Positions 7,201 to 64,000 of a stretch of 64,000 bases of DNA are shown here, one piece after another. Positions within the stretch are counted from its first letter, which is position 1. Each line of letters starts with the position of its first letter. The DNA lies in assembly GCF_044704955.1 (NCBI RefSeq), contig NC_091984.1:148800001-148864000 (forward strand), given 5' to 3'. Below the pieces are notes generated by a model. The model was not told where the DNA came from. It saw nothing but the letters and a program-made list of their open reading frames with translations, and searched no databases. A program made the translations under genes and the position numbers. Origin of the DNA: Pristiophorus japonicus. Lineage: Eukaryota.

Positions 7201-8778
7201 CCGCCCGCGTTCGGTCGGCTCCCTCCTCACCCTCCGCCCGCGTTCGGTCGGCTCCCTCCTCCCCCCCCGCCCGCGTTCAGTCGGCTCCCTCCTCACCCTC
7301 CGCCCGCGTTCGGTCGGCTCCCTCCTCACCCTCCGCCCGCGTTTGGTCGGCTCCCTCCTCACCCTCCGCCCGCGTTCAGTCGGCTCCCTCCTCACCCTCC
7401 GCCCGCGTTTGGTCGGCTCCCTCCTCACCCTCCGCCCGCGTTTGGTCGGCTCCCTCCTCCCCCCCCGCCCGCGTTTGGTCGGCTCCTTCCTCCCCCCCTG
7501 CCCGCGTTTGGTCGGCTCCCTCCTCACCCTCCGCCCGCGTTTGGTCGGCTCCCTCCTCACCCTCCGCCCGCGTTTCGTCGGCTCCCTCCTCCCCCCCCGC
7601 CCGCGTTTCGTCGGCTCCCTCCTACCCCCCCCGCCCGCGTTTGGTCGGCTCCCTCCTCCCCCCCCGCCCGCGTTTGGTCGGCTCCGTCCTCACCCTCCGC
7701 CCGCGTTCGGTCGGCTCCCTCCTCCCCCCCCGCCCGCGTTCGGTCGGCTCCCTCCTCCCTTCCCGCCCGCGTTCGGTCGGCTCCCTCCTCCCCCCCCCCA
7801 CCTGCGTTCGGTCGGCTCCCTCCTCCCCCCCCCCCACCTGCGTTCGGTCGGCTCCCTCCTCCCCCCCCCGCCCGCGTTCGGTCGGCTCCCTCCTCCCTTC
7901 CCACCTGCGTTCGGTCGGCTCCCTCCTCCCCCCCCCCCACCTGCGTTCTGTCGGCTCCCTCCTCCCCCCCCGCCCGCGTTCGGTCGGCTCCCTCCTCCCC
8001 CCCCCCACCTGCGTTCGGTCGGCTCCCTCCTCCCCCCCCCCCACCTGCGTTCTGTCGGCTCCCTCCTCCCCCCCCGCCCGCGTTCGGTCGGCTCCCTCCT
8101 CCCCCCCCGCCCGCGTTCGGTCGGCTCCCTCCTCCCTTCCCGCCCGCGTTTGGTCGGCTCCCTCCTCCCCCCCCCCACCTGCGTTCGGTCGGCTCCCTCC
8201 TCCCCCCCCACCTGCGTTCGGTCGGCTCCCTCCTCCCCCCCCCGCCCGCGTTCGGTCGGCTCCCTCGTTTTGTGAGGCTTGCTGCACCATTCTCCCTGGC
8301 TGAAGCACTTTCACACAGGTAGGAAGATGGTTTATTTAATCTTTTCTTTGCTTATAAATGTTTATTCAGGTTGGATTTATTTGTATAATATTTGTATAAG
8401 TATAAATAAGGATTTATTGTCGAATTTAATGAGTTCCTTCCCCCCGCCTCCCCCCCCCACCTCATTCTGGGCACCTGATTTGTAACCTGCGCCTGATTTT
8501 TTAATGTGTAGAACAGGTTTTTTCAGTTCTACAAAAATCTTCACTTGCTCCATTCTACTTTAGTTTGGAGTACATTTTCACTGTGGAAACTTTGAAATCA
8601 GGTGTCAGTGGCCGGACACGCCCCCTTTTGAAGAAAAAATTCTGTTCCAAAGTAGAACTGTTCTACCTGACTAGAACTGCAGAAAAAAAAATGTGGAGAA
8701 TTGCGAATTCTAAGATAGTCCGTTCTCCACCAGTTGCTCCTAAAAATCAGGCGCAGATCATTTGGAAACTTGGGCCCT
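4253..8778. mobile_element. Non-autonomous TIR DNA transposon (PIF/Harbinger-like) inflated by a minisatellite
   Basis: TIRs GGGCCCAAGTTTCCA (4253-) and TGGAAACTTGGGCCC(C) (-8778); TA(G) duplicated at 4251 and 8779; sits inside the (GAAACATA)n tail of a CR1; no transposase. Confidence 0.8.
4790..8265. repeat. C-rich minisatellite, core GC(G/A)TTCGGTCGGCTCCCTCC plus variable pyrimidine spacers (~22-37 bp units)
   Basis: Directly visible tandem array of ~3.5 kb. Confidence 0.97.
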
Positions 8779-11700: not shown

Positions 11701-12660
11701 TGTAATATGGCCCTTTTTGTTTTTTGCCTTGGGATTCCCTGCCCTCCACTTTTACTATTCTCCTTTCTATCTTTTGCCTCTGTCTCCTTTTTATTTCCCT
11801 CTGCCTCCCTGCATAGGTTCCCATCCCCCTACCATATTAGTTTAACTCCTCCCCAACAGCACTAGCAAACACTCCCCCTCAGACATTGGTTCTGGTCCTG
11901 CCCAGGTGCAGACCGTCCGATTTGTACTGATCCCACCTCCCCTAGAACCGGTTCTAATGCCCCAGGAATTTGAATCCCTCCCTTCTGCACCACTCCTCAA
12001 GTCACGTATTCATCTGAACTATCCTGTGATTCCTATTCTGACTAGCACGTGGCACTGGTAGCAATCCTGAGATTATTACTTTTGAGGTCCTACTTTTTAA
12101 TTTAGCTCCAACCTCCCTAAATTCGTCTCATAGGATCTCATCCCGTTTTTTACCTATATCGTTGGTATCTATGTGCACCATGACAACTGGCTGTTCACCC
12201 TCCCTTTTCAGAATGTCCTGCACCCGCTCTGAGACATCCTTGACCCTTGCACCAGGGAGGCAACATACCATCCTGGAGTCTCGGTTGCGGCCGCAGAAAC
12301 GTTTATCTATTCCCCTTGTAATTGAATCCCCTATCACAATCGCTCTCCCATTCTTTTTCCTGCCCTCCTGTGCAGCAGAGCCACACACGATGCCATGAAC
12401 TTGGCTGCTGCTGCCCTCCTCTGACGATTCATCCCCCCCAACAGTACCCAAAGCGGTGGATCTGTTTTGCAGGGGGATGACCGCAGGGGAGTCCTGCACT
12501 AGCTTCCTTGCACTACTCTTCCTGTTGGTCACCCATTTACGATCTGGCTGTTTACACTTTACCTGCAGTGAGACCAACTCGCTAAACATGCTATTCACGT
12601 CATTCTCCGCATCGTGCATGCTCCAGAGTGAATCCACCCGCAGCTCCAGTGCCGCCATGC
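8779..12660 (-). mobile_element. Near full-length CR1 LINE (ORF1 SGNH esterase-like C-part, ORF2 APE-RT), mildly degenerate
   Basis: ORF1 AIVIGDSITRG..VCCLPGARVKDV..VHIDTND; ORF2 IMGDFN, SDHNMV, KSPGPD, YLDFQKAFDKVPH, SGVPQGSVLGP, YADE; 3' tail CTAT(G)TTTC repeats. Confidence 0.95.
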
Positions 12661-14358
12661 GTGAGGCATGAGTCCGGGGAGCATCTGAGGCCCATAAAGG
12701 CCACAAGAGGCAGTGGGAGTTTGTGGTCACTGAGGCGTGAGTCCGGGGAGCGTCCGAGGCCTATAAAGGCCACGAGAGGCAGCAGGAGTGCGCGGTTGCT
12801 GAGGCGTGAGTCCGGGGAGCATCCGACGCCTATAAAGGCCGTGAGAGGCAGCGGGAATTCGTGGTCACTGAGGCGTGAGTCCGGGGAGAGTCCGAGGCCT
12901 ATAAAGGCCACGAGAGGCAGCGGGAGCTCGTGGTCGCTGAGGCGAGAGTCTGGGGAGCGTCCGAGGCCCATAAAGGCCGCGAGAGGCAGCGGGAGTTCGT
13001 AGTCGTTGAGGCGCGAGGCCAGGGAGCGTCCGAGGCTTATAAAGGCTGCGAGAGGCAGCGGGAGTTCGTGGTCGCTGAGGCATGAGGAAGGGGAGCGTTC
13101 GAGGCCTATAAAGGTCGCGAGAGGCAGCGGGAGTTCGTGGTAGCTGAGGCGTGAGTCCGGGGAGCGTCCGAGGACTATAAAGGCAGCGAGAGGCTGCGGG
13201 AGTTCGTGGTAGCTGAGGTGTGAGTCCGGGGAGTGTCCGAGGACTATAAAGGCCGCGAGAGGCAGCGGGAGTTCGTGGTAGCTGAGGCGTGAGTCTGGGG
13301 AGCGTCCGAGGTCCATAAAGGCCGCGAGAGGCAGCGGGAGTTCATGGTCGCTGAGGCGTGAGTCCGGGGAGCGTCCGAGGACTATAAAGGCCGCGAGAGG
13401 CAGCGGGAGTTCATGGTCGTTGAAGCATGAGGCCGGGGAGCATCCGAGGCTTATAAAGGCTGTGAGAGGCAGCGGGAGTTCGTGGTCGCTGAGGCGTGAG
13501 TCCGGGGAGCATCCGAGGCTTATAAAGGCTGTGAGAGGCAGTGGGAGTTCGTGGTCGCTGAGGCGTGAGTCCGGGGAGCGTCTGAGGCCTATAAAGGCTG
13601 CGAGAGGCAACGGGATTTCGTGGTCGCTGAGGCGTGAGTCTGGGGATCGTCCGAAGCCCATAAAGGCCGCGAGAGGCAGCGGGAGTTCATGGTCACTGAG
13701 GCGTGAGTCCGGGGAGCATCCGAGGCTTATAAAGGCTGTGAGAGGCAGCGGGAGTTCATGGTCGTTGAGGCGTGAGGCCGGGGAGCGTTCAAGGCCTATA
13801 AAGGCCGCAAGGGGCAGCGGGAGTTCGTGGTAGTTGAGGCGTGAGGCCGAGGTGCGTTCGAGGCCTATAATGGCCGCGAGAGACAGCGGGAGTTCGTGGT
13901 CGCTGAGGCGTGAGGCCAGGGAGCGTTCGAGGCCTATAAAGGCCGCGAGAGGCAGCGGGAGTTCGTGGTCACTGAGGCGTGAGGCCTGGGAGCGTTCGAG
14001 GCTTATAAAGGCTGCGAGAGGCAGCGGGAGTTCGTGGTCGCTGAGGCGTGAGGCCTGGGAGCGTTCGAGGCCTATAAAGGCCGCGAGAGGCAGCGGGAGT
14101 TCGTGGTCGCTGAGGCGTGAGCCCTGGGAGCGTTCGAGGCCTATAAAGGCCGCGAGAGGCAGCGGGAGTTCGTGGTCGCTGAGGCGTGAGGCCTGGGAGC
14201 GTTCGAGGCCTATAAAGGCCGCGAGAGGCAGCGGGAGTTCGTGGTCGCTGAGGCGTGAGGCCTGGGAGCGTTCGAGGCCTATAAAGGCCGCGAGAGGCAG
14301 CGGGAGTTCGTGGTCACTGAGGCGTGAGGCCTAGGAGCGTTCGAGGCCTATAAAGGCC
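12661..14358 (+). repeat. 69-bp tandem array (~24-25 units), each with a CCTATAAAGG-type TATA-like box; CR1 5' UTR monomers
   Basis: 23-aa periodicity in ORF track; runs directly into a CR1 5' UTR and ORF1 start. Confidence 0.9.
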
Positions 14359-14660
14359 AGCCGGTGCAGCTGCAGGGAGAGAAGGCAAAAAAGAAGTAGA
14401 AAGAAAACGAAAGGTGACATCACAGCCAAGGGGTAAGTGATTGGCTGGTGATTGGTAAGTAGTTTTTCATTCTCTTTTCTTTATCAGTACGTAACATTTA
14501 GCATTGTTGTTGCCAAATTAAGTTTATCTAAGGATTAAGTCATGGCAGGAGAGCTCGGACACGTGTTATGCTCCACCTCTACGATGTGGGAACTCGGGGG
14601 TGCTTCCAGTGTCCCTGACGACTACGTGTGCGGGAAATGTATCTGCCTGCAGATCTTGAC
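14359..14660 (+). mobile_element. CR1 5' UTR and ORF1 N-terminus (inverted 5' part of the 8779-12660 element)
   Basis: ATG 14542 MAGELGHVLCSTSTMWE..DDYVCGKCICLQILT (Zn-finger-like start), breaks at 14660; continuation RMAALELRVDSL begins at ~12661 on minus. Confidence 0.85.
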
Positions 14661-44385: not shown

Positions 44386-45682
44386 TTTCTTTCCAATTCA
44401 GCTCGACATCTTTGAAACCCAAACCCGCGGACAGTGACGGACAGGTAAAGACCCTGTGGTCCATCCAACCCGTCCCACACAATTGCAATACCTTGTGTAT
44501 CACAGTATAGACTCTCCACCCCACCCAAAACTACCTGATCTCCTGGGAGAGGTGAAAAACCAGGTAAAAAACCCATTGGGGGAAATAAATCTGGGAAACT
44601 CCTCTCCGACCCCCCCCCCCCCCCGCCCCCGCTCCCCAGGCGATGGAAACTAGTCCAGGAGGTCACTGTGGCCCTGAATTCCCTGCAGTAACTACCTTCT
44701 GTAAGTGGTGATCTCCGCATCGGCCACAAACAGGTCCTGCTCTCGCTTATGTACAGCTCATGAATTTAAAATTACAAACTTTCCCCACAGTGTCAAGTGC
44801 TGCAAATACTGTGTTACATTATCAGGGTTATATTCTCACTGTCTGTCATTGTCACAACACTCGCAATATAAATGCAAGTTGTTGTTGTGTTCAGGGGCCG
44901 CTGTATCTGGCTCAGGCTTCTTATCCATCCCCCCCTTCCCTTCCCCCTCCATTGAGGGCCATGCCTTCAGCTGCCTGGGGCCTAACTCCCTGCTCCCTAA
45001 ACCTCTCTGCCACTCCATCCCTCTTCTCTTTTAAGACCTCCCTTCAAACCCAATCTGTGACTGAGAGTTTTGATCACCCACCCAGCTCCTCCCCCTTTGG
45101 CTCAGCACCACTTGGACCAGATTACACCTCTGTCAGCTGCCTCGGGATGTTGTTCTAATGTTCCAGTTGCTATAGTGTCGAGGAAATATTTAGCTTAAAT
45201 TAACTCAGGCGGAGACTTTCAGAAGTGCACTTCGAGAGAATTTATTTTAAAAAGCGAGATATATCTCGGAGAGCCTGCTTGGACCGTACCAAGGCAAAAA
45301 CTCTGCCGTACAGGCAAATTGTCCCCATCTTTATACAGAAATTAAATACAGAAATATAAAAGGAATCTTATTCATTTGTCCCGCGAGTACAAAGGTCGTC
45401 TCAGGAGGTACACACTCTATCTATCCTTGCATAGTTTCTCTCTGTTCACAGTCTGATAAGTAGAATAAAAGGAGACTCCCTTTTAATACCAGATGGTCAT
45501 TTAATTGCATCTCTAAGTTTCAAGGCTAAAAAAGCATGGCTATGTTTCTAGTCCTATTATTTCTTTAAGCATAGCAAAAACAGAATTTAACCCTTTCCTT
45601 TTCCATAAGCCATAGATTCATAGATCCTTTCTTCCACAATTCCCTCCTTGTTGATCTTTTTATTTTTTAGATCAACACAATT

Positions 45683-47493
45683 TCAATATTCTCTTCTTGA
45701 GCAAAAGGGGTTTATTACTTGACTAATTACATTTTTTAATTTTATCCACATTCCGCAAAGGATTATTAATAATACAAGCATAACCACACCTACGATTACT
45801 ATGGGGTGTATAGCAAGCTTCAGTACTGCTGTAGCTTTTAGGGACCATCCGGTAAACACATCCCACCAGTGGTGTACTGTCAAAGAGGTGACTTCGTCTG
45901 CAATTCTCACTAGTTGCCCCTTCTTGTAACTCATTTCGACTCTAAATTGGTGGATGTCTCTGCCTTGCTTTGACAGAGCTTCCTCAATTTTCTTGTCATT
46001 CCGTATCAAATTGTGCAGTCTGGTCAGATTAATTACAGGGGGTAAGGGTTCAATCTTGTGCATAGACAGATACTTTTCTACATTTTGCCATTGCCCAAAG
46101 GTATAAGTTTTTTTTAACTTCAGGGTCATACAGGGTGTAGACTCTTCTCACGCATTTATTAATGGGGGGTTTATACAAAATTCCATCCAGATAGACAGGT
46201 TTATTTCCTGTCACACAGACCTCATTCTGTCCTATTTCCGTTATATCAGTGTCATTTGTTGGCTTTAATTCCCATTTACATACTCCAATGGCATGCTGCA
46301 GTGAGCATGGTTCGTATATGGCGGTCTGATAGGGACATACCATTCCGAATGGCCACCTAGCACATCCCCTCTGGTGATGTGTCATATTCTTCTCATCGAC
46401 CCAATCTCCTTTAAATTCTGGGTACCAGAAGTTCTGTCCAAACAGTTGGGGCATTACTTGGAACTGACACCAAATTTCTTTTCGTGTCATTCTTACTATT
46501 TCTCCAGTAACGTTACATCCTTTTGAATTACAACTGGTATATCTTTTTTGAGGGCTAATGGTTAAATTAAGAAGCTTATCTCTTTTGTTAATTTCCAGCA
46601 ACCTTTCCCATGTGTTAGCATGGAAGGATAATATTTTCCTTTCTAACTCGGCTCTTAATAGCTGTCTGATCATTTCTTTAAACAGGCAATGGGTGTACTT
46701 GTTACTCCCTGTTGTTCCTTTATTAGGTTCTCTATTTCCTTCTCTACCCTTTCATTCTGTTCCCAGGTCATTTCGTTTATGACGTAACCTGATATTTGTA
46801 ATTGCTGTAATCCTTCATCCCAGGCATTTCTGATTTTTATATCTTCCCCTACCAGTCCTCCGACGGCCTGGATTTTATTTTGTAGGGTCTCGATATCCAT
46901 GGAGTTCAATGCTCCTATTCCTGCTCCCACTCCACCTAACACAGTCTCTAATACATCCCGTTTCTTTCTTTGGGGTCTTTCTTTTTCAAAAGATACTTTA
47001 ACACTGGTTGTGTGGCAACCATCTTCTTTCTTTGGGGGATATTCACCGGGGTGTTATTCATGCACAACATCCGCTGCCCTTCTACCATACTTGTAAATGA
47101 ATAATGGAGGAAGTCTTTTCTCTCGTCCGGCCCTCCTATGTACCCCCATCTCTTGTTTTTCCCTGTGCTCCCGGTACACTTCATCCACACATCGGCCTGG
47201 TATTCTATGAACAACTGATACCCTTTCCCCAATATAAATTGGAACTCCCCTCTTTCTTCCTTCATTCCACATGCCTCACATCGTGCCGTAAAATTCCCTA
47301 CCTTACAACTTTGGCCTACTGGGCATATAAAATTGCCTTGCTGCCTCATACTATTACTTCTTTCCCATACCATATTTCCCTTCCATACTCTTCCTTCTTT
47401 TAGGACTTCTTCCTCCTGCCGGGAGTTCCCTGTCGCTAAAATGATCAGTATACCTAATGTCCATTTATAATTTTTCCAAGAGTCCCTTCCCAT
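45683..47493 (-). pseudogene. env: ERV env, frameshifted; short SU, RKKR furin site (46958-46969), long TM subunit
   Basis: Signal peptide WTLGILIILATG; RKKR|DVLETVLGGVGAGIGALNSMDIETL; Cys-rich ectodomain; HHWWDVFTGWS..HPIVIVGVVMLVLLIILCG anchor. Confidence 0.9.
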
Positions 47494-47620
47494 CTTCCCT
47501 TTCTTGTTTGTTTCTATACCACTCTTGAATTAAGTCGTTACAATAACAACACGTCCACACGATAGTAACAGTGGCCCAAATAATAAAGGCCCAAACTGGC
47601 ACACAAATGAGCTCTGACAT
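47465..47620 (-). CDS. Small single-pass membrane ORF (51 aa) between pol and env, overlapping env start
   Basis: MSELICVPVWAFIIWATVTIVWTCCYCNDLIQEWYRNKQEREDGKGLLEKL; ATG start, intact. Confidence 0.5.
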   Translation of the reverse strand: MSELICVPVWAFIIWATVTIVWTCCYCNDLIQEWYRNKQEREDGKGLLEKL

Positions 47621-50600
47621 CTGTCCGTGAATTTTGGGCAATATTTTCAAGTCCAAATATTTAATACAAGAGCAGGTACAGTTCTTTCAGCGAGAAGATG
47701 GCTGTTTTCTTAGTCGGGCGACCGTAGTATGTCCTGGTTCAATACCTTTTTCTTCGGCTGTAATTCGTCGGGGAAATGATATTTACAGCGGATTGCATGC
47801 ACCCAGTTCGGGTGCTTTTCCAACTTCAAAGCGGATCGTGTTGTGACAATTATCTGATACGGTCCTTTCCACCAAGGAGAAAAGGATTCTTTATTTAATG
47901 TTTTTACTAACACTTGATCTCCAGGTCTGAAAGGGTGCATATTTCCTTCCAAAGGGGCACCTGTGTCTGCTTTATTTGTTCATGCAGACTTCTTGTTATT
48001 TCACACATGGCCTGAGCATACTTTAGTGATTTTTCATCATTCCAACTTAATGCTATTTTTTCATCTGCCAGTGGTGATTTTACGCCAGTAGGCATTGGTC
48101 TTCCCAATAAGGCTTCATGTGGTGTCAAACCAGTGTTTCGGTTTTTCTGGTTTCTCATTGTATACAATACTAATGGTAAGGCTTCTGGCCACTTCAGTCC
48201 AGTCTCCTGACATACCTTGGTAAGGGTAGATTTTATTATCCCATTTACTCTTTCTACCATTCCCGAGGACTGTGGCTGATATGGTATATGTAACTTCCAC
48301 AGGAAACCTAACGCTTCTGCAAGGTTTTGCACTATTTTTCCGGTGAAGTGGGTTCCCCTGTCACTGTTGATTCCCATAGGTATCCCATATCTTGGTACTG
48401 TTTCTTTAAATAGAATTTTTACTACTGTTCGGGCATCGTCTTTCCTAGTGGCTTGCGCTTCTACTCACCTTGTGAACATGTCTATTATGACTAATAGGTA
48501 CTTAAGACCTGATACTGGAGGCATGTTGACAAAGTCAATTTGCAAATTTTCAAAGGGCATACTTGGCTGGGGTAGATGATCATATCCAGCAGGTGTTTTA
48601 CTTCTGTTATTTTGTTGACAAATTTGGCATGTTCTAGCAACTTTCTCAATTACTACTGTTATTCCTGGTGCATACCACTGTGCATTAATAGCATGTATCA
48701 TCCCTCCTTTGCCCATGTGAGCCTGACCGTGTGCTAGGCGAGACAGGGGCAAAAATAGAGATCTAGGGCAAACAGTTCGCCCATCAGGGTGATACCAAAT
48801 GTCGTTTTTTAGAAAACAACCCTGGTTTTCCCAAGTTCTTCCTTCCTGCATGGTAACTTGTTGTTGGGCTGTTTTAAGTTGTTGGATGTCAAGTACCTGT
48901 GGAGGGGAGACTGAGACTGCTTGAAGGCAGTCTGCCTGTGCCGAAGCGGCCTGTTTGGCTGCCTCGTCAACCCTCCTATTTCCTACTGATACTTCATCCT
49001 CACCAGTTGTGTGAGCTGCACATTTGATGAAGGCTACCTTACTTGGCAACTGAATGGCATCTAATAGATTAAGCACCAGTTGAGAGTGCTTAATATGCTT
49101 TCCACCAGAGGTGATAAAGCCTCTGTTTTTCCACAGTTGTCCAAAATCATGGACCACACCGAATGCATATCTAGAATCAGTATAGATATTAGCAGTTTGA
49201 TCTTTAGCTATTATACAAGCTCTAGTGAGGGCAAACAATTCAGCAGCCTGAGCCGAGGTTCCGGGAGGCAGGGCGAATGCTTCAACAGTTTCGTGGGGAT
49301 TTACAATAGCATAGCCTGCCAACAGCAAGTCATCCGATGGCCTGTACGATGATCCATCCGTATAGAGAATAAGATCTGGATTGTCCATGGGCTCTGTGAG
49401 CAAATCTGGTCTTGGTAAGGTGGCTATTTCGACCGTTAACAGACAATCATGCTGGTCTGGATCCTCTATTCTTTAGTAGGAAGAAAGGTGGCTGGGTTCA
49501 CTACCGGTGCGCGTCGAAAGGTATAGTTAGGGTGTGACAGCAGTAATACTTCATAACCTGTTCTTCTAGACGCTGTAAAGTGTTGTGTGGCAGCTGAATT
49601 CAAAAGTAATAACACAGCATGGGCGGTAATGACAGCACATAGATAATCCAAAACAATAGGTGCCGACTTCTCCACCATGACTGCAGTAGCAGCTACAGCA
49701 CGTAGACATGCTGGCATTCCCCTTACTACTGGAGGCAGCAAAACCGAATAATAAGCAACTGGTCTATTTCCCCCACCATGTTCGTGGGTTAGTACTGCTG
49801 TTGCAAATCCTTCTTTCTCATTCACATACATCTGAAAAGGTTTACCATAATTCGGAAGTCCCAACGCCAGAGCATTAGTAATGGCTTTCTTTAACTGTTT
49901 AAATGCCTCCTCTTTCTCTGGGGTCCACTCCACCTTGGGTGGGGCATCATTTAGGGCAGCTGATCTTAGGACCGCATCCCATTCTCGATTCTTTCTGGTC
50001 CTAGCTGCCTCTGCCCTTGAGATATGTGAAAACCCAGGTACTGGACTTGAGTCTGACAAAATTGTAACTTTTGTAACGACACTCGGTGCCCTCTTTCACA
50101 TAGGTGCTGTAGCAGTTTCAGGGAATCTTGCATGCACCTATATCCGTGGCTAGAAGCCACAAGCAAATCCTTGGGGCAACCTGGTCCATGTGTACTGCTG
50201 CTTCTTGTGGGTGAAAGCAAACAGATACTGACTTTCTTGATTTAACGGAATAGAGAAAAAAGCTGAACACAGGTCTATTACAGTAAAGACAGTTGCTGTT
50301 GGTGGTATAGCAGATAGTATAATGTTGGTGTCCGGTACCACAGGGGTGATAGGGACTACTATCTTATTAATAGCTCTCAGATCTTGCACAAATCTCCATT
50401 CCTACAATCATCGGACCCATATCTTTAGGTTTCGCTGGCGGTTTTACAGCCAATGTCAGATGGGGTGTCGAGTTCGCTTCTCTAAACCGCTGCTGCTGTA
50501 AGGGTGTCAAATCGATGGCTACCCCCAATCCTTCTGGTCCAAAATAAATGCGGGGCGTAGCTTCTACTATTTCTTCTCTATTTAAAAAGGATTGTACCAG

Positions 50601-50983
50601 ACACTGGTAAGTTTCAGCTTTTTGTCGAGTGTACCAGGCTGTACAGTGAAGCTGAACTGCCTCAAAGCTTGTCAAAATTATATACATCAATTCTTCAGTA
50701 TTAGAGTCAAATTTAGCTTTTAAGTTTTGTATAACTTCATGTATCAAGGGGGAATAGAAGTTGCCATTCAATTGCCAACAATAGAGGGCAGCCTTTTCTT
50801 TGTTATCCTCCCTTTTCTCTTCTTTAATCCCATTAAAAAACTGATGGATTTTATTTGGAGGGAGCTCCATGAACATTCCTTCCTTTGTGCAATAAATTGT
50901 GGCTCCTAGTTTGCACAAAGTCTGTCTTCCCAATAAAGGGAGAGGTGTTGTTTTAGAGACTATCAAAGTCTCATCATTAACTG

Positions 50984-53900
50984 TGTTGTAGGAGGTAGGC
51001 ACCTTTAGAATATACCAGAATACTAGGCATTAGGCACCTGCTAGATATATCTAAACGCATATAAGTTTAAAGTGGCCACACATAAAATGGCTGCCCAGGC
51101 ATGATGGGAAATCAGGTAGTCAAGCTGTGAACTGTTGAATGTTCAATGACCGAGCAATAACCCTGTGAGGCCCACTATAGGAATGCCTTGGATGCAGGAT
51201 AAGAATAATGAGGAGAGAACCCATCTCCCATATTCAAGGCCATAAACCAATTAATTCCCCAGGAAGAAAGAGATAAGAGAACCCATCTCCTGTAAACAAG
51301 GTTAGAAACCAATTATTTCTCCAAGAAGAAAGAACTAGTGAGAGAACCTATATCAATCAGCCCAAGCTGACAAAAGACGAACACATGGTTCCTGAGACAT
51401 AAGGGGAATTCTATTGGGTTAAAATAACCTATATGTAATCTATAATCATTGTGATTGGCTTGTGTCCAGCCGTGATGGGCTGTGTAGCTGTAGTAAACTG
51501 TTTTGTAACTGTTGTGAAACATATAAAGGTGCATGTAATCCTTTGTTCTGTGAAGAGAAACCTGGATACGGTCCTGAGTTTTTCCTTCCCGCTGAGCGTA
51601 ATAAAAGCTGCTTCAGCATTGGAGCCGACCCTGAGTGTTGAGTGATTCTTCTAAGAAAACACTAACGCTAACAATGGCGTAGTCGACGGGATTTCCCGGA
51701 GTCGCTGGACGCCCTTGGAAAAAACCCGGGTGAGTATAAAAAACAATTTTTAAGTATAAAGGGTGCGGAAGGTGGAAGCTGGTTGATCGACATGAGGAGA
51801 CGGTCTAATATCTCAAACGCCTAGCCTGAGCCTGAATTAAGAGGACTTTTGTCCCACGTGACGGCCAGGAACCAAGTAGGCGTAGGGAACACACTTAGAC
51901 CGTGGGATCGTGATACCGAGAGACATCTTCCGGACCCAGTAGTGTAATTTGAAATACCCCGGGATAGAACCAAGCGGTGTACAGCGGCTAACGGAATCCA
52001 AACCTGTGAACAGGGTCGGACCAACAGGCTGAGCGGTGGTAGGTAGTCGTTAAGGATACGTAGAGCACTGCGGGAATTGCTTAAACGCGTTTTTAAGAAT
52101 TGTATAAGTTTGTGCAACAGCAGAACTTGTGACCTGACAGTAGCCAAGAGACAGTTTACTACAAGTCGCGCTAGAAAGAAAGCGGACCTCTGAGAGTAGA
52201 TTCCTAACGGTAGTAGTCCTACCCAGGAATGGCCATGAAAACAAGTAAACTCGAGTGGGGACCAGAAGGGTCGCTTACCCGCCACCTGGCGGAAAAACAA
52301 AAGAAGCTAATTGAAAAAAATGATTAAAGCAGGGTGGAATCCTCAGGAATTAGTTATGTGAGGAATTATTTAAATAAAACTACGAATTCCCTGAAAGGTC
52401 ATGGATCCAAAAATAGAGCCGGCCAAAACAAGAAGAGAGACTGTTGTAAATGTCTGATCGTTGAGTGAGAAGTGTCTGTGTGATTTTTGACTGCAGAATG
52501 AATTTTTTTATGTTTTCATGTTCCGAAAGTCTGGTTGGAAGAGGAATGCAAGTGTCTGTTTATTTTAGAAACAGAGTGAAAGTCTTTTTTTAAACCCTTT
52601 GTAATGTTGTCCTGTATGTGGGAAGTTTTAAGACATTTAAGTTAGAAACGCAGGTGTGGATTTATTCGGATGATAAGTTACGGAGCTAGGAAAATAAACA
52701 AATAAAGAATAGGTTTGTTGAGCAAAATATTTATTTGACATGCTCACTTACTTGCCGAAAGAAAACATGCAATGATTGATTGGGCTGAAAGACATAAATT
52801 TAGTCTCGGAGTGAGATAAAGAATGCTTTAAAAAAAAAGAGCTTCTAAAAAAAAAAGTTTTAAATAAAGATTGAAATTACAAAGTTTGAATTGGGATTTT
52901 GAGATATTCAGAGAAGGCACAGGAAATACTGAGGTGGATTTAAAAAAAAAGAAAAAGATTAAATTAAATCTGATCAGGTCAAACTCCTGGGCAAGTGGCG
53001 AGCTATCTGCGAAGGTGTAAAAGGAACTTTTGGAAAATGTTAAAAAAAAAAACAGCAAGCTTTAGTAACGACTTTGAAACTGGAGCATTTTGAGATAACG
53101 AAAAAGCACTCAAACTCTCAAAGATGGACTTCATTCCAGTTATGGAGAAAAAGAAAAAGATAAAGACGCCACTTTGAAAGTAAACAAATGATTTTAAATT
53201 AACAACTTTATGGAGTTACGAACCCTCCGTGTAAAATACAAAACCTAATTTGAAGAAAGGAAAAAAAGATGTAACGGACTAAATGGAAAAAGACATAACT
53301 TACTAAATACTAGTTGATGTTTGCTGTGAAAAAGATATTGGTTTAATTAGAAGAGGAAAAAAAAAATTGGAATAAGTAAAAAACACTCTACATGGATTCG
53401 AATTTTCAATTATGAAAAAGTTTCAATGCAGTTTGAAAAGATTTCCAAAATGGACAGTGTTTATCAAAAATGTCCCGAACAGTCTAAACAAGCAGGAGGG
53501 TTTTGAAGATAACGAGGAGAAAGAGAGAAATAAAAAAAAACAGAATTGAATTTCAGTAAACAAAATTGCTATTGTATGTGTGGTCTTGTTTTAAAACAAT
53601 TTAAAAAAAAAATTCTTTGGCAAGTACTTGAATTAGAAGTTAAGAAAACATTGGAGTTTACTCTAATGATTTATGCTGTTTTTAACGGATTCCTAATTTC
53701 GAAGCCAGTTTTGAAGGCACAAAGACTTTTTTTCAGATGATTACGTGAAATCACGTAATGACATCAGGTCTTCTTACAAACCTGTAAAGGAGTTAACCCT
53801 TTCCATTGACAGCCGTGTTATACTGAACATTATTAATTTGGATTTCTTAATAGGAAAAAAAAAGACTCACCTAACAGAGGAAACAAAAAATAAAAACAGA

Positions 53901-56900
53901 ACTAGCTTATGTAATAATGCTTGCCTGATACAATAAAGAAATAGATATTCAATAAAACAAATTGAAGAGTTAAAAGCTAAGATAAACAGGCTGGAAGAGA
54001 TAACAGGACTAGACGGATAGTGCAGTGCGCAGCCATAGCACCATCACCTCTGGCAATAGAGCCAATGTACCCCACGGTGGGTAGGTGTAGTCCACAAACC
54101 CAACCTAACGGTAAAGCAGACAGCGATGTTTGGAGGAATAGCTTTGGCCTTGGTCATATGAGTTTGGGTAATATTTAAGTGGGTAAAGACACGGGCGCAC
54201 GCCCTACAGATTCAGCTCGAAATGGTTCGATTATAACCTTGTGCTTCTGATTTTGCAGGGTGACAGGGACACTCGTAGAGCAAAAAACTTAACCCCTGGT
54301 GACGACCAGGCCGTCTGTTTAAAATTACAGATAATACTTACCGGAATGGGAATACGAACGGCGCTACTCGTAATATGGATAGCCCTGTGACATACACGAA
54401 CCCTGGGCAACACCGACGGACAGCAGAGCACGCTGGAAATAAACAATTACATGAACTATGGAGTGTTGTTCAATTTGACGGACGGAATATGTGTTCCAGC
54501 GACTAAGGATTGGAGCAAGGACAGAACTTATTTTAATGCATGGTTACAAGTGAATCCTAATAAGGACCGGGTATGTGTACAGTGCTCCACGGGTATAAGG
54601 AGCAGCTGCATTAAACGGAGGGATGTCAAAGGGCCCGATGAATGTACTTTCGGCATAATTTGTGCGCCTCCGGGACAATCCCAGCAATCAGTCATCCGCA
54701 AGAAGGGAATGGGGCTGTGTGGGTATTACGAGGAGGCGGGAGTGGCTGCAATATCATTGTATGTATGTTTCTCACCCCCTCCAACACCGCGCCCCATAAG
54801 AATCACTACATTGCCCGAGGAACTGCCTTGCCCCATAACTACGAAGGGACCAGAGAATGGGATTGTAATGTACAGCGAGGGGGAACTGTTGTATGATAAT
54901 GTTAGACATGAAATTGTGCCTGTTCTGATCAATATTTCAGGCATCCAGATGCTGGAATACTGTACAGAACAGTCAAGGAAGATGTACAATGTATTAAGTA
55001 AAGTTGTCATGCAGCAGGCTGCCGATGCAATGTGTGCCAGTAGGTTCCGGGGACAGGGGTTAGCCCCAGGATGAAGAGGGAAGTAGTTAATGATGTTGCT
55101 ACCGTTTTCAATACAGAGACCTCCGTAGTGAACTCGATAGACATACAAGGATTAAATGAGAGGGTGGAGCAAAACCAGGAAGACCAGGCCAACCTAGGAA
55201 AGGAGGGTGCCAAAATCCAGTTGGATGGCATCTCAGTCCTGGAAGCTCACGCTAAAACCATCAATCACCTCATTGATAGAGAACAATAAAGCAAAGACAG
55301 GGGCAACTCTGTCATGCTTATGGTCTGTGGATGGTGGGACAGATCCGCCACAACCTCGACCAGATCCAACGCGGGGAAGTACCCGATTGGATAGACAGTT
55401 CACATTTAGCTCAGTTGGCGAACCAAAGGGGGACACTGGATAATTGTACTCTGAAGGGACTGACCCGAGTATACCCCGCAATTCCAGATTGCCAGATGGG
55501 TAGGACTACCGGGATAGGGATAGTCCTGTTGATCCCTATAGCAACGCCGGACTCAGGGCCGTTCCCCTTATACCAACTAGAGAATATCGGAGTAATACGG
55601 GAAAATGTCTCCATACGCTACTACCTGACCACCACCTCTGCCGTTCGTCGAAACAACATACTTACTGGGATTTCCCTAGCAGATTGCAAGCAAAGGGGGG
55701 GAAATCACAGTATGCCCTCACCCGATGGGCCGAGGTGAACTAGACGAGTGCGGGTTTAACCGAACCAACGGGTGTGTACTAGAAATAGTGCCCGCACACA
55801 TGCACTTCGCGAGGGCAGGCTACGGAGGGAGGGGAAGATACTGCGTCTCTACCACAGAGCGTTCATACCAGTATAATGACCTGCAGTGCCCTATACCGCA
55901 GCCAAACTTTTGCTTTACACCACGACGACCTGTCGCGATCGGGCAAGCGCATATCACACAAGTTAGGCGCCGGAAGTCCGAAGTTATTGAAGTAACTGAT
56001 CAGCTCCATGATCATTTGCAGGATTATGACGAGCCAGAGCAGGTCCCTATCCCACATCTCACGGAGGTATTACGGGAGTTAAGGCTCAGAGTGGGGCAAT
56101 CCGTAAAACTCTATCACCAGCTACAAACTAAAATCAAAGAACTGGAAGAAGATACCGAGGTAGACTTACAAAGTCAGAGTTGGTGGAGAAAGGTCTGGGA
56201 CTGGGGAATAAATGTGAACATCCACCCATGGATCCGAATTATTTCACACACACTGGTCGGTATACAATTGATCTTAGCAATAACATGGGGCGTAATGGCC
56301 TGCCAGGCATGCAGACACCACGCACAACGAAGACGGACAAATCACCGTTCCCTGGATACTAAACAAGCCTGTTTTATAAGGGGGCAGGAGGATTTGGCCT
56401 TTGTCAATTCGATTTAAGCAACCGGGACTCCTGAAACTGCGTGACTGGCCAGCACGTTGAGGCAGGGAGTACCGGGCCGTGCACAAAATCTAATAAAGGT
56501 CGAATGATCGGTTAAAAGGGGACTAGGACTAGTCCCTTTACCGAAAGGGGGAGTTGTTGTAGGAGGTAGGCACCTTTAGAATATACCAGAATACTAGGCA
56601 TTAGGCACCTGCTAGATATATCTAAACGCATATAAGTTTAAAGTGGCCACACATAAAATGGCTGCCCAGGCATGATGGGAAATCAGGTAGTCAAGCTGTG
56701 AACTGTTGAATGTTCAATGACCGAGCAATAACCCTGTGAGGCCCACTATAGGAATGCCTTGGATGCAGGATAAGAATAATGAGGAGAGAACCCATCTCCC
56801 ATATTCAAGGCCATAAACCAATTAATTCCCCAGGAAGAAAGAGATAAGAGAACCCATCTCCTGTAAACAAGGTTAGAAACCAATTATTTCTCCAAGAAGA

Positions 56901-57244
56901 AAGAACTAGTGAGAGAACCTATATCAATCAGCCCAAGCTGACAAAAGACGAACACATGGTTCCTGAGACATAAGGGGAATTCTATTGGGTTAAAATAACC
57001 TATATGTAATCTATAATCATTGTGATTGGCTTGTGTCCAGCCGTGATGGGCTGTGTAGCTGTAGTAAACTGTTTTGTAACTGTTGTGAAACATATAAAGG
57101 TGCATGTAATCCTTTGTTCTGTGAAGAGAAACCTGGATACGGTCCTGAGTTTTTCCTTCCCGCTGAGCGTAATAAAAGCTGCTTCAGCATTGGAGCCGAC
57201 CCTGAGTGTTGAGTGATTCTTCTAAGAAAACACTAACGCTAACA
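50984..57244 (+). mobile_element. Nested pol-less LTR element carrying a degenerate F-like env
   Basis: 690-bp LTRs 50984-51673 and 56555-57244 (identical by eye), TSD ACTG, PBS TGGCGTAGTCGACGGGAT at 51675, PPT GAAAGGGGGAG ~56543-56553. Confidence 0.95.
54346..56417 (+). pseudogene. env: env-like class I fusion glycoprotein gene, disrupted
   Basis: Signal MGIRTALLVIWIAL (TGA at 54388), RMKR cleavage ~55068-55079, NSIDIQGL heptads, Cys spacing like paramyxo F1, coiled coil, WW..HP, TM helix; at least 4 lesions. Confidence 0.8.
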
Positions 57245-57504
57245 ACTGGTTGTCCTTCAATTATCAATTTGGTAGGTTCAGATAAAAATTCTTTCATGGG
57301 AATACCGGCCACACCCATACTTAAGACGGTGGTGTTGCTTACAGGTAATCCCACAGAGGATGGTACAGAAGACATAGTAGCACCAGTATCCACCAGGAAT
57401 TTCACATAAGTGTCTCCTACTTTTACTACTGCCAGAGGGTTTTCTTCTATGGCTGCTGATAAGTGGAGGGCTGCCGCCTGTACCACTAAGCCTCCGGGGC
57501 ATCC

Positions 57505-60434
57505 CTATGCTGATTATTCTGTGCCTGTCCTTTTTTTTACTTTGAAGGTATGAGGCGTGAATTCGCTAGGATAGATTGGCGAATGATACTTAAGGGGTTG
57601 ACTGTGGATGGGCAATGGCAGACATTTAGAGACCGCATGGATGAACTACAACAATTGTACATCCCTGTCTGGTGCAAAAATAAAAAAGGGAAGGTGGCTC
57701 AACCGTGGCTATCAAGCGAAATCAGAGATAGTATTAAAGCCAAGGAAGTGGCATACAAATTGCCAGAAATAGCAGTGAACCCGGAGAATGGGAGAAATTT
57801 AGAACTCAGCAGAGGAGGACAAAGGGTTTGATTAGGGCAGGCAAAATAGAACACGAGAGGAAGCTTGCAGGGAACATTAAGATGGACTGCAAAAGTTTCT
57901 ATAGGCATGTAAAGAGAAAAAGGTTAGTAAAGACAAACGTAGGTCCCCTGCAGTCAGAATCAGGGGAAGTCATAATGGGGAACAAAGAAATGGCAGACCA
58001 ATTGAACAAGTACTTTGGTTCGGTATTCACTAAGGAGGACACAAACAACCTTCCGGATATAAAAGGGGTCAGAGTGTCTAGTAAGAAGGAGGAACTGAGG
58101 GAAATCCTTATTAGTCAGGAAATTGTGTTAGGGAAATTAATGGGATCGTAGGCCGATAAATCCCCAGGGCCTGATGGACTGCATCCCAGAGTACTTAAGG
58201 AGGTAGCCTTGGAAATAGCGGATGCATTGACAGTCATTTTCCAACATTCCATAGACTCTGGATCAGTTCCTATGGAGTGGTGGGTAGCCAATGTAACCCC
58301 ATTTTTAAAAAAAGGAGGGAGAGAGAAAACATCGGTAGTGGGGAAAATGATGGAATCAATTATTAAGGATGTCATAGCAGCGCATTTGGAAAGAGGTGAC
58401 ATGATAGGTCCAAGTCAGCATGGATTTGTGAAAGGGAAATCATGCTTGACAAATCTTCTGGAATTTTTTGAGGATGTTTCCAGTAGAGTGGACAAGGGAG
58501 AACCAGTTGATGTGGTGTATTTGGACTTTCAGAAGTCTTTCGACAAGGTCCTACACAAGAGATTAATGTGCAAAGTTAAAGCACATAGGATTGGGGGTAG
58601 TGTGCTGACGTGAATTGAGAACTGGTTGGCAGACAGGAAGCAAAGAGTAGGAGTAAATGGGTACTTTTCAGAATGGCAGGCAGTGACTAGTGGGGTACCG
58701 CAAGGTTCTGTGCTGAAGCCCCAGCTGTTTACATTGTACATTAATGATTTAGATGAGGGGATTAAATGTAGTATCTCCAAATTTGCGGATGATACTAAGT
58801 TGGGTGGCAGTGTGAGCTGCGAGAAGGATGCTATGAGGCTGCAGAGTGACTTGGATAGATTAGGTGAGGGGGCAAATGCACGGCAGATGAAGTATAATGT
58901 GGATAAATGTGAGGTTATCCACTTTGGTGGTAAAAACAGAGAGACAGACTATTATCTGAATGGTGACAGATTAGGAAAAGGGGAGGTGCAACGAGACCTG
59001 GGTGTCATGGTACATCAGTCATTGAAGGTTGGCATACAGGTACAGCAGGCGGTTAAGAAAGCAAATGGCATGTTGGCCTTCATAGCGAGGGGATTTGAGT
59101 ACAGGGGCAGGGAGGTGTTGCTACAATTGTACAGGGCCTTGGTGAGGCCACACCTGGAGTATTGTGTACAGTTTTGGTCTCCTAACTTGAGGAAGGACAT
59201 TCTTGCTATTGAGGGAATGCAGCGAAGGTTCGCCAGACTGATTCCCGGGATGGCGGGACTGACATATCAAGAAAGATTGGATCAATTGGGCTTGTCTTCA
59301 CTGGAGTTCAGAAGAATGAGAGGGGATCTCATAGAAACGTTTAAGATTCTGATGGGTTTAGACAGATTAGATGCAGGAAGAATGTTCCCAATGTTGGGGA
59401 AGTCCAGAACCAGTGGTCACAGTCTAAGGTTAAGGGGCAAGCCATTTAGGACTGATATGAGGAGAATCTTCTTCACCCAGAGACTGGTGAACCTGTGGAA
59501 TTCTCTACCACAGAAAGTTGTTGAGGCCAATTCACTAAATATATTCAAAAAGGAGTTAGATGTAGTCCTTACTACTAGGGGGATCAAGGGGTATGGCGAG
59601 AAAGCAGGAATGGGGTACTGAAGTTGCATGTTCAGCCATGAACTCATTGAATGGCGGTGCAGGCTCGAAGGGCTGAATGGCCTACTCCTGCACCTATTTT
59701 CTATGTTTCTATGTTTTGCTGATAGTACTTACCTGCTGTTTTAGCCTTATTTTCCTTATAGGTAAATAGTCCCTCTCTATCCATGTTAGCCAGTACTGTA
59801 ACTGTCTCTTTCCAACTTTTTCCTTGCCAGTCAAAAACCTTTATTTTGTATGTTCTTGCGTGTTGTGGCAACATACAATTTAACAAGGTTTGCACTGCCA
59901 AAGGTTCATCTTTTACCCCTTGCCAAGAGGACCCATATGCTGCCTGCAGTAATAATTTCACATCTCCGGGGAGGGGGTTATAAATGGTACAGGTTTGCTC
60001 AAGCCAGTTGTGAAAGGCTACTGGCTTCTTAACAGGATTAGGGGCGGCTGATATTGTTTTTTAAAACAATTCTCCATATAATCTTTATCCCAAGTGGGGA
60101 CCCCTGTCCCATTTTTGGTGGTCTGTCTCCATTCCTCAATTAAGGACAATTTAAAACTTCCTCCATATGGCCAATCCCCATCAGACCAACCGTACAAATC
60201 TCTACTAAATGTTACCGCGTATCTGTCGTCTCCTGTTTCTTTAATTACAGTGTCCGCCGGCGAGCTGGGCAGCACAATGGGATCTCCTACGTTCTCTTGT
60301 TGCTTTACTACCTTACTGATTTTTTTCTCAGTCTTAGGATGTACTTTCATTCTTTCAGTTGAGAGGTCGTCCTTCTTTCCTTTTCTAGGAGCTGGGTGCG
60401 AGCGCCCTGCTCGACTAGAGCCGTTTCCCATTCT
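57505..60434 (-). pseudogene. gag: ERV gag remnant (interrupted by CR1), amber junction with pro
   Basis: MGNGSS myristoylation-type start, WPYGGSF matrix motif; TAG GGA at 57507-57502 in frame with protease. Confidence 0.7.
57538..59714 (+). mobile_element. 5'-truncated CR1 inserted in ERV gag; same subfamily as 8779-12660
   Basis: MRREFARIDWRMILKG.. through RT to CTATGTTTCTATGTTT tail; peptides near-identical to 9521-10921 ORF. Confidence 0.95.
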
Positions 60435-60746
60435 TCCGGGTGCAACGTCTCGCGATCTTTTCTGAAATGAGAGTTGGGACAATCCTACAAAATATACAAT
60501 AATTTACAAAGCGCTCACCGGTGTTCTCTTTTCTGCTCAGCTCGGGGTCTCCTTTTGCCTTTTTGTTATTTTAGCTTCTTTGCCGTAGCTATCTTATGCC
60601 TCACCCCCTAGGGGATCTCGGCGGCCCGTCCCCCTTTCAGCTAGGACGGCCTAGGCACCTTCCTTCTTTTAGCTAGGAAGGTCCTTAAAATTCCTCTTTT
60701 CTCTTTAAAAGTTAAATTTAGTTCTTTTGGATCTCGTTTTTTAGAG

Positions 60747-60765
60747 ATCCTGCCGGACTACGCCA
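60747..60765 (-). promoter_or_regulatory. Primer binding site, tRNA-Ser
   Basis: TGGCGTAGTCCGGCAGGAT vs tRNA-Ser complement TGGCGTAGTCGGCAGGAT. Confidence 0.85.
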
Positions 60766-62239
60766 GAATCTGTCGAGGAAATATTTAGCTTAAATTAACT
60801 CAGGCGGAGACTTTCAGAAGTGCACTTCGAGAGAATTTATTTTAAAAAGCGAGATATATCTCGGAGAGCCTGCTTGGACCGTACCAAGGCAAAAACTCTG
60901 CCGTACAGGCAAATTGTCCCCATCTTTATACAGAAATTGAATACAGAAATATAAAAGGAATCTTATTCATTAGTCCCGCGAGTATAAAGGTCGTCTCGGG
61001 AGGTGCACACTCTATCTATCCTTGCATAGTTTCTCTCTGTTCACAGTCTGATAAGCAGAATAAAAGGAGACTCCCTTTTAATACCAGATGGTCATTTAAT
61101 TTCATCTCTAAGTTTCAAGGCTAAAAAAGCGTGGCTATTTTTCTAGTCCTATTATTTCTTTAAGCATAGCAAAAACAGAATTTAACCCTTCCCTTTTCCA
61201 TAAGCCATAGATTCATAGATTCTTTCTTTCACATATAGCAATGCAGGTTGTTGCTGCTGTACCTGGAGGCTGGGCGTCACTGTGTGGATATACCCCGTGC
61301 ACCGAGTTCCGCAGTGAGGCCTCCCACAGTGGAATGGCCTGCCGATGCTCACTGCAGTGCGGAGTGGCTGCTGATCCGCCAATCGGTCTGAGACACCGCC
61401 TCACGAGCGGACAAGGAGATACACGCTGAGATCCACCATCAAATGGCACGTGGGGAACTGGAAATGATTCTGCAAATCTGACTGGAGGTTTGGTACAAAC
61501 GGCTTTTACAAACCAATCAATTGATTGACAAAGAAATTGTCTTTGTGAAACTTTGAAAATTGCAGCTCAATCAAATTGTGAGGGAAACTGGCAGTGATGT
61601 CTTCATACCAAAAGGGGGCGATGTTGGTTGCGAAAAGACCAAACTTAATGAACAAATCCCAGAAGCTGGGCAGAAGGGATTGGCTCCCGGTTAAGCAACG
61701 CCTCCGCTTCAAAATTTTCATCCTTGTTTTCAAATCCCTCCATGGACTCGCCCCTCCCTATCTCTGTTAGCTCCTCTAGTCCTAAAGCCCTCCGCCCCCC
61801 CGATACCTCGATGCTTTCCAATTCTGGCCTTTTGTAGATTGACGATTATAACCATTGGTGGCCGTGCCTTCAGCTGCCGAGGCCCTATAGTCTGGAATTC
61901 TCCCCCTAAATCTTTCCGCCACTCTAGCTTTCACTGCTTCTTCAGCACACTCCTTCAAACTCATCCCTTTGATCAAGCTTTCGCTCATCTATCCAAAAGT
62001 CTCCTGACATGGCTCGCTGTCAATCTTTGTTGTATAACGTTCCTGTGAAGCGCTCGGGGAGTTTTACTGTGTTAAAGGTGCTGTATAAAAGTTGCTGTTG
62101 TTGTTTGTTCTGAGTTAGCTGATCCAACTGAGGTCGGGATATGACTCACAGCTCAGACTGTGCGGCATCCAGTGATGCAATGTTGTATCGTGGGTTCAAG
62201 CCCCACTCCAGGGACCTGAGTGTAAAATAAAGGCATACA

Positions 62240-64000
62240 CTACTGTGCAGTCCTGAGGGAGTGCTGCCCTGTCAGAGGGGCAGTACTGAGGGAGTGCCAC
62301 ACTGTCAGAGGAGCAGTACTGAGGGAGTGCCGCACTGTCAGAGGGGCAGAACTGAGAGAGTGCTGCACTGTCAAAGGGGCAGTACTGAGGGAGTGCTGCA
62401 CAGTCGGAGGGGTAGTACTGACGGAGGGCTGCACTGTCAGAGGGGCTGTGCTGAGGGTGTGCTGTACTGTCAGAGCAGCATTACTGTGGGAGTGTTGCAC
62501 TGTCGGAGGGGCAGTACTGAGGGAACACTGCACAGTCGGAGGGTCAATACTGAGGCAGTGCTGCACATTCGAAGGGGAGGTACTGAGGGAGTGCTGCAAT
62601 GTCGGAGGGGCAGCACTGAGGTAGTGCTGCACTGTCGGAGGGGCAGTACTGAGGGAGCGCTGCACTGTGGGAGGGGTAGTCCTGAGGGAGTGCTGCACCG
62701 TCGGAGGGGTTGTACTGAGGGCTTGCCGCACTGTCGGAGGGGCAGTACTGAGTGAGTACTGCACTGTCAGAATGACAGTACTGAGGGAGCGCCGCACTTT
62801 CAGATGGGCAGTACTGAGGGAGTGCTGCACTGTCAGAGGAGTAGTACTGAGGGAGTGCTGCACTGTCAGAGGGGCAGTACTGAGTGAGCACTGCAGTGTC
62901 GGAGGGGCAGTACTGAGGGAGTGCTGTACTGTCGGAGGGGCAATGCTGAGGGAGTGCTGTACTGTCAGAGGGGCATTACTGAGGGAGTGCCGCAATATTA
63001 GAGAGACAGTACTATGGAGCAACGCACTGTCGGAGGGGCTGTACTGAGGGAGTGCTGCACTGTCGGAGGGCAGTACTGAGGGAGTGCCGCAATGTCAGAG
63101 CGGCAGTACTGAGGGAGTGCTGCACTGTCGGACCGGCAAACAGAGCGAGTGTGGCACTGTCAGAAGGGCAGTACTGAGGGAGTGCCACACTGTCGGAATG
63201 ACAGTACTGAGGGAGAGCTGCACTGTCGGAGGGCAGTACTGAGGGAGTGCCACACTGACGGAGGGGCAGTACTGAAGAATTGCTGCACTGTCGGAGGGGC
63301 AGTAATGAGGGAGTGCCGCACTGTCAGAGAGGCAGTACTGAGGGAGTGCCGCACTGTCGGAGGGTAGCAGTACTGAGGGAGTGCTGCACTGTCAGAGGGG
63401 CAGTACTGAGGGAGTGCCGCACTGTCGGAGGGGTAGTTCTGAGGGTGCACTGCACTGTCGGAGGGGCAGTACTGAGGTTGTGCTGCTCTGTTGGAGGGGC
63501 AGTACTCTTGGAGCGCTGTACTGTCGAAGGGGCAGTACTGAGGGAGTGCAGCCATGTTGGAGGGGCAGTGCTGAGAGAGTGCTGCCCTCTCGGAGGGGCA
63601 GTAGTGAGGGAGTGCCGCACTGTCAGAGGGGCAAATCTGAGGTCGTGACGCTCTGTCAGAGGGGCAGCACTGAGAGAGTGCAGCACTGTCGGAGGGGCAG
63701 TACTGAGTGAGTGCTGCACTGTCGGAGCGGCATTACTGAGGGAGTGCCGCACTGTCGGTAGGGAAGTACTAAGGGAGTGCCGCACTGTCGGAGGGGTTGT
63801 ACTGAGGGAGTGCCGTACTGTCGGAGGGGTAGTACTAAGGGTGTACTGCACAGTCAGAGGAGCAGTGCTGAGGGAGTGCTGCACTGTCAGAGAGGAAGGA
63901 CTGAGGGAGTGCTGCACTGTCAGAGGGGCAGTACTGAGGGAGTGCTGCACTGTCAGAGGGGTAGTACTGAGGGAGCGCTGCACAGTCAGAGGAGCAGTGC
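62240..64000 (+). repeat. 33-bp SINE-derived minisatellite (long, copy B; runs off window)
   Basis: 11-aa periodicity (TVQHSLSTAPL) in ORF track; >50 units. Confidence 0.95.

Follow-up and report, generated by a model that had tools for sequence, protein, structure and literature searches.

A predicted CNPase-like 2H phosphoesterase domain in the pol gene of an epsilon-like endogenous retrovirus family of the shark Pristiophorus japonicus

According to excerpts of two papers, epsilon-like endogenous retroviruses (ERVs) of fish carry a CNPase or a macro domain in some cases (PMC4977317, citing Basta 2009), and 2H domains are listed in fish retroviruses and in walleye dermal sarcoma virus (WDSV; PMC9503650, citing Mazumder 2002). 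A CNPase-like domain is already in print for fish retroviruses, in which it has been noted for two decades; the DNA analysed here holds a broken copy. A functional test of the viral domain was not found in our literature search, most subscription papers lying outside its reach, and the main text of a paper on shark ERVs (PMC4422223) did not return the terms CNPase, phosphodiesterase or phosphoesterase. The cellular CNPase hydrolyses 2',3'-cNMPs and requires Phe235 and Tyr168, and its helix a7 does not occur in other 2H enzymes (PMC4643303, excerpt). The mammalian enzyme can stand in for the CPD activity of Trl1 in a yeast mutant. The same superfamily, with its two H-x-T/S motifs, comprises MHV NS2, rotavirus VP3-CTD and AKAP7, the first two also viral, as well as the likewise viral phage Acb1 and penguinpox cGAMP phosphodiesterase (PDE). 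In this study, we add the host spread of the retroviral domain, an estimate of selection, a sister clade in which it is eroded and a case against 2-5A as its substrate. The viral copy across sharks, bony fish, newt and hagfish may offer a handle on both its viral role and the natural substrate of CNPase; the window copy itself adds little.

The window, i.e., the whole stretch of 64,000 nucleotides of Pristiophorus japonicus DNA that was analysed, carries on its minus strand a provirus flanked by a 5-nt target duplication (Table 1). Its family shows the LTR-gag-pol-env-LTR order, the amber codon between gag and pol and the MLV-type integrase C-terminus of class I/epsilon-like ERVs. The nearest RT sequences are those of fish and amphibian ERVs, in an RT tree without a named reference virus. 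The motif pair sits in pol of this epsilon-like provirus, within an open stretch of 220 codons (51029-50367, minus strand). The sequence-only reading had described two intact HxT motifs 62 residues apart, and the H-C-T and H-L-T motifs are indeed real, lying in one frame at exactly that spacing. The chance of an H-x-T/S pair 55-68 residues apart is 0.5%, based on 20,000 shuffles of the homologous segment.

Table 1. Features of the outer provirus, of its predicted 2H domain and of the inserted elements, in window coordinates.
Feature	Position	Strand	Remarks
5' LTR, outer provirus	60771..61233	-	463 nt; 97.4% identical to 3' LTR
Primer-binding site region; gag remnants that carry deletions	59714..60770	-	
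LINE fragment inside gag	57539..59711	+	
Protease N-terminal catalytic part (DTGA)	57245..57504	-	Pfam RVP, E 9e-06
Younger LTR element in protease	50984..57244	+	LTRs 50984-51674 and 56555-57245; 4-nt target duplication
Protease C-terminal part	50880..50983	-	LLGR motif at 50936
CNPase-like 2H phosphoesterase domain (predicted), truncated	50400..50820	-	covers ~residues 1-140 of the 196 that were modeled in a sister copy
Motif 1, H-C-T	50648-50640	-	codon read; His in 57/62 homologous rows
Motif 2, H-L-T	50462-50454	-	codon read; His in 57/62 homologous rows
Deletion junction	50395..50401	-	~437 nt lost relative to sister copies; 7-nt overlap
Remaining pol: RT, RNase H, integrase with stop	47500..50394	-	
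Env-like region, several frames	45686..47529	-	assigned by position and furin-like site; no Pfam match
3' LTR, outer provirus	45176..45638	-	463 nt

The window copy is a dead, broken member of a large family. Its protease is split by a 6.26-kb LTR element inserted at 50984-57244, and a deletion of ~437 nt, beginning 20 residues past the second His, takes away the C-terminal strands of the domain as well as the beginning of RT and causes a frameshift. The RT carries two additional deletions of ~100 nt each. Projected on the model of a sister copy, the large deletion cuts off all residues after 140, i.e., half of a helix (131-148) and four strands, and the 2H fold is therefore incomplete in the window copy. 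Its product would very likely not fold, and an active protein from this copy is very unlikely. A Pfam scan of the window frame did not find a 2H family. The proposed intact domain in frame after the protease is thus found in sister copies of the family; the window frame retains only the C-terminal part of the protease, and its domain, although located between protease and RT, is truncated and out of frame with RT.

The LTRs of the younger element are identical across 691 nt. It has env-like frames at 54391-56417 with no Pfam match, no gag or pol was seen in it, and the genome contains at least 40 matches at 94-100%. It is possibly a non-autonomous, env-carrying element, "env-like" being a reading only.

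The outer provirus has at least 150 matches at 93-100% identity among 1268 candidates in the 5.9-Gb genome. The best 19 copies share the frameshifted end of the window copy, or nearly so, and its deletion is common to all 18 mapped copies of this sub-lineage (one duplicate left out). These deletion-bearing copies (L001-L019) are dispersed across many contigs; the sub-lineage was therefore copied after the deletion, either in trans or by duplication. Other sister copies encode protease, domain and RT in a single frame, and a TAG codon stands at the gag-pol border in two of the three copies examined, the third not matching the search motif. The genome also contains a tandem array with a period of ~5.35 kb (C3:232762026-232920551), in which each of at least 24 units matches the domain region.

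Conservation and selection were followed in two sets of copies. Among 66 copies picked by the domain (five tandem duplicates dropped), the four motif residues are kept in 66, 65, 65 and 65, respectively, a way of picking that favours conservation. A second set was picked by RT (30 fetched, 29 after dropping one near-duplicate; some loci overlap the first set), and here the motif histidines are present in 24/29 and 26/29 copies, with four and three gaps, respectively. Sister proviruses thus keep the HxT motifs in most copies. In the RT-picked copies, the pairwise pN/pS of the domain core is 0.39 (95% interval 0.25-0.60), the corresponding values being 0.33 (protease) and 0.19 (RT outside the query). 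Purifying selection acted on the domain with a strength close to that on the protease. The C-terminal 45 residues of the domain give 0.64 (0.27-1.75), an interval that includes 1, and most or all of the domain is deleted in 3/29 copies. We set aside the idea that the truncated form is itself selected: the 18 copies with the deletion give a pN/pS of 0.48 (0.24-1.11), and the part of RT that is out of frame in them gives 0.30, which points to inherited variation.

The fold of the domain was modeled from a sister copy. With a 65-row alignment the prediction reaches a pLDDT of 79.9 and a pTM of 0.76, while the same domain folded without alignment is unusable (pLDDT 32.7). Against PDB, the 43 rows listed by Foldseek consist entirely of CNPase and the RICH protein of goldfish (lowest E 5.6e-09, TM 0.66-0.74). 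VIA-align against 48,161 chains ranks CNPase (2xmi) first with Z 17.3, an rmsd of 3.1 and 183 aligned residues, the next best match having Z 7.6. Bacterial and plant CPDases and Acb1 follow at Z 7.0-7.6, VP3-CTD at 6.4 (rmsd 3.6, 112 aligned), MHV NS2 at 6.4 (4.3, 127), AKAP18 at 5.8 (4.5, 136) and the penguinpox cGAMP PDE at 5.4; the top 12 rows are all 2H phosphoesterases, judging by their titles or names. A 14-row sequence profile, independent of the model, agrees: 23 of its 24 PDB matches are CNPase/RICH (best E 0.002), and H-C-T-x-x-Y is paired with H-C-T-T-K-F of CNPase. The conserved motif pair and the bilobed fold predicted for the sister copy would thus place the domain in the 2H superfamily, and both model and profile point to CNPase as its closest 2H relative. 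The original 2H call is in this way borne out by fold ranking, profile and motif conservation, with CNPase far ahead of the AKAP7-type fold.

The likeness extends to details of the CNPase/RICH catalytic domain (PF05881; 2xmi, 1woj, 2i3e): the predicted fold over 183 residues, an H-C-T first motif, an aromatic residue five positions past the first His and a helix after the second motif. The aromatic residue, equivalent to Phe235, is Y or F in 49/62 homologous rows. An N-terminal Tyr is present in 53/62 rows, and Tyr13 is likely the equivalent of Tyr168, a mapping that follows from the aligned ranges. Gly135, within the predicted helix 131-148, is kept in 56/62 rows; position and hhalign suggest that this helix corresponds to a7. 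Unlike in CNPase, the positions that would match Arg307 and Val321 are not conserved, identity is only 15-20% (Foldseek), and the viral domain has no PNK-like domain at its N terminus and is fused into Pol. The motif spacing is 62 residues versus 79 in mouse CNPase (His230/His309; PMC4643303, excerpt).

Sequence comparisons are correspondingly faint. The Pfam CNPase family (PF05881) gives no match to the domain of the shark family and matches one of 14 relatives (E 0.012), and phmmer with the single domain found no match in PDB. Atlas features gave the tRNA-ligase CPD and 2H-SAK clusters at 0.93-0.94, a weak result with a recognition value below threshold. A CNPase gene of the host itself is also present in the genome. 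Its motifs are H-C-T and H-I-T, and it resembles the domain only weakly (direct BLASTP against the host exon, E 0.41; hhalign, probability 48%); the domain is therefore not a recent capture from Pristiophorus japonicus.

Among viral models, the top structure matches are the polyproteins of WEHV1 (E 1.9e-09) and WDSV (E 2.5e-09), followed by Q2VF30, which we take to be from salmon swim bladder sarcoma virus. The predicted fold is the same as in both walleye retroviruses, and the CNPase-like 2H domain of teleost ERVs shares the site between protease and RT and the motif spacing. Structure matches and the cited papers thus uphold the suggested link to fish retroviral polyproteins; unlike the described fish epsilon-like retroviruses, the host here is a shark and the window copy is truncated.

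Relatives in other hosts were recovered only via a protease-to-RT query (235 proteins, of which the 120 best listed were used) and a full HMMER scan (20 matches; P0124, a repeat protein, was left out), as word-based protein searches with the domain alone gave one match and none. A search of viral_contigs found no relative, and a search of sequencing runs listed no RNA data set that contains it. Among 124 proteins with an RT match, the domain is present with both motifs intact in 66, with eroded motifs in 11 and partially in four; 24 lack it, two have another insert and 17 are unscorable. In the two proteins with another insert (P0038 and P0122, one labelled Bombina), a different segment of ~90-100 residues, devoid of the motif pair, separates protease and RT. 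By a hand count of source labels, the 66 intact proteins comprise 41 from ray-finned fish (of which one bears a second label that conflicts), five from cartilaginous fish (two belonging to the Pristiophorus japonicus provirus family), one newt, one hagfish and 18 without host label. Of 62 aligned outside rows, all selected because they carry the insert, 57 retain the first and 57 the second motif His, although their identity to the query is 15-27%.

A quick RT tree, built on 107 rows without the 17 unscored ones, shows the domain on several deep branches and groups the shark family with a newt protein and a teleost clade. In this nearest teleost-labelled clade, the motifs are eroded in 8/11 whole domains (6/9 after merging identical RTs), accounting for eight of the 11 eroded cases among 77 whole domains overall. 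The closest relatives with a teleost label or no name (P0006, P0009-P0011 and P0013-P0016) have a whole in-frame domain in which at least one His or Thr of the motifs is lost.

The host range bears on the OAS-RNase L antagonist proposed in the sequence-only reading. The host genome itself has an OAS cluster with 16 exon matches on C8, as would suit such an activity. This region (C8:218423330-218595169) contains about five OAS-like genes in both orientations. A search with the single family PF06479 did not find RNase L in the host genome; its three matches fall at two genes, whose last exons we take to resemble IRE1. The OAS-RNase L pathway works in a cartilaginous fish, arose after the split from jawless fish and was lost in ray-finned fish, frogs and salamanders (PMC10400998, excerpt). 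The motif erosion in the nearest teleost clade would fit such a loss of target, yet the intact pair persists in the 41 ray-finned-fish-labelled rows as well as in newt and hagfish. Conversely, the domain is absent from all eight amniote-labelled rows that hold protease and RT (six further amniote rows were unscorable). The rows of all these hosts are related and hence not independent events.

On balance, we consider it probable that the domain of the replicating virus is a 2',3'-cyclic phosphodiesterase of the CNPase fold, carried into the particle inside Gag-Pol. It would be translated by read-through of the amber codon at the end of gag and packaged in the virion as part of Gag-Pol, a reasonable inference from its position there, and the protease probably cuts it free. 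The enzyme would then open 2',3'-cyclic phosphates to 2'-phosphates, at RNA termini or on free nucleotides. The virus would likely benefit from the clearing of cyclic-phosphate products of host endoribonucleases, which would either act as immune ligands or block the ends of viral RNA or of the primer tRNA; RNA end-healing, one of the functions put forward at the outset, fits the predicted CNPase-type fold. The substrate does not follow from likeness of fold, and a counterpoint comes from the nearest teleost clade, whose eroded motifs indicate that the domain can persist without the standard catalytic set.

The same erosion would suit a mainly non-catalytic role, either as an RNA- or nucleotide-binding spacer in Pol or as a decoy for host CNPase, and selection will to some degree preserve the folding of any segment that is in frame within Pol. 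In favor of a decoy, host CNPase binds Gag and inhibits primate lentivirus assembly (PMC5434554, excerpt citing the primary paper) and, as the product of an interferon-stimulated gene, acts on HBV (PMC3832489, excerpt). We nevertheless regard a non-catalytic role as unlikely, since the retention of both histidines across such distant rows points to catalysis in most lineages. A cyclic phosphodiesterase could also serve a more specific end: after an early uptake of CNPase, retroviruses of aquatic hosts would package it in order to degrade 2',3'-cyclic GMP and RNA fragments with cyclic-phosphate ends, the products of RNase T2 by which TLR7 and TLR8 are activated. 2',3'-cyclic GMP is the ligand of TLR7 pocket 1 (PMC11470960, excerpt), and cyclic-phosphate RNA is sensed by TLR8, RIG-I and NLRP3 (PMC8406329, excerpt). 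This conjecture is doubtful; if true, the viruses of shark, bony fish, newt and hagfish would have kept a virion-borne enzyme erasing an RNA-sensor ligand, and this TLR-ligand eraser would be missing from the amniote relatives seen.

A cGAMP phosphodiesterase, blunting the cGAS-STING sensing of reverse-transcribed DNA, appears improbable. Cyclic-dinucleotide 2H enzymes do occur among the fold matches, and a protein carried within Pol would come in together with the reverse-transcription complex. Fish possess cGAS-STING, and the host range therefore does not count against such an activity. Yet the folds of phage Acb1 (Z 7.0) and the penguinpox enzyme (Z 5.4), which unlike the viral domain are stand-alone proteins, lie ten Z units below CNPase, and we know of no report of CNPase cutting cGAMP. 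Moreover, none of the four viral and host 2',5'-PEs assayed cleaved cGAMP (PMC8406329, excerpt).

Activity on ADP-ribose 1'',2''-cyclic phosphate (Appr>p), together with macro domains in NAD+/ADP-ribose conflicts, seems quite improbable. The Arabidopsis Appr>p CPDase is the third fold match (Z 7.0, far below CNPase), some fish ERVs carry macro domains (PMC4977317, excerpt) and 2H domains have been placed in the NAD+/ADP-ribose conflict network (PMC9503650, excerpt), but a macro domain was not found in the two sister Pol proteins scanned.

Least convincing, and in our view very improbable, is a 2',5'-phosphodiesterase degrading 2-5A and thereby blocking OAS-RNase L, in the manner of coronavirus NS2 or rotavirus VP3-CTD: superfamily membership and a weak Pfam match to AKAP7 (E 0.12) speak for it, but VP3-CTD, NS2 and AKAP18 reach only Z 5.8-6.4 versus 17.3 for CNPase, and the distribution of the viral domain does not follow OAS-RNase L, the intact domain being commonest in hosts without that pathway. 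Predicted fold and host range thus narrow the candidates away from 2-5A and disfavour the OAS-RNase L antagonist.

The window also contains many LINE fragments and minisatellite arrays at 4783-8270, 12524-14479 and 62142-64000, with units of 23, 33, 34 and 69 nt.
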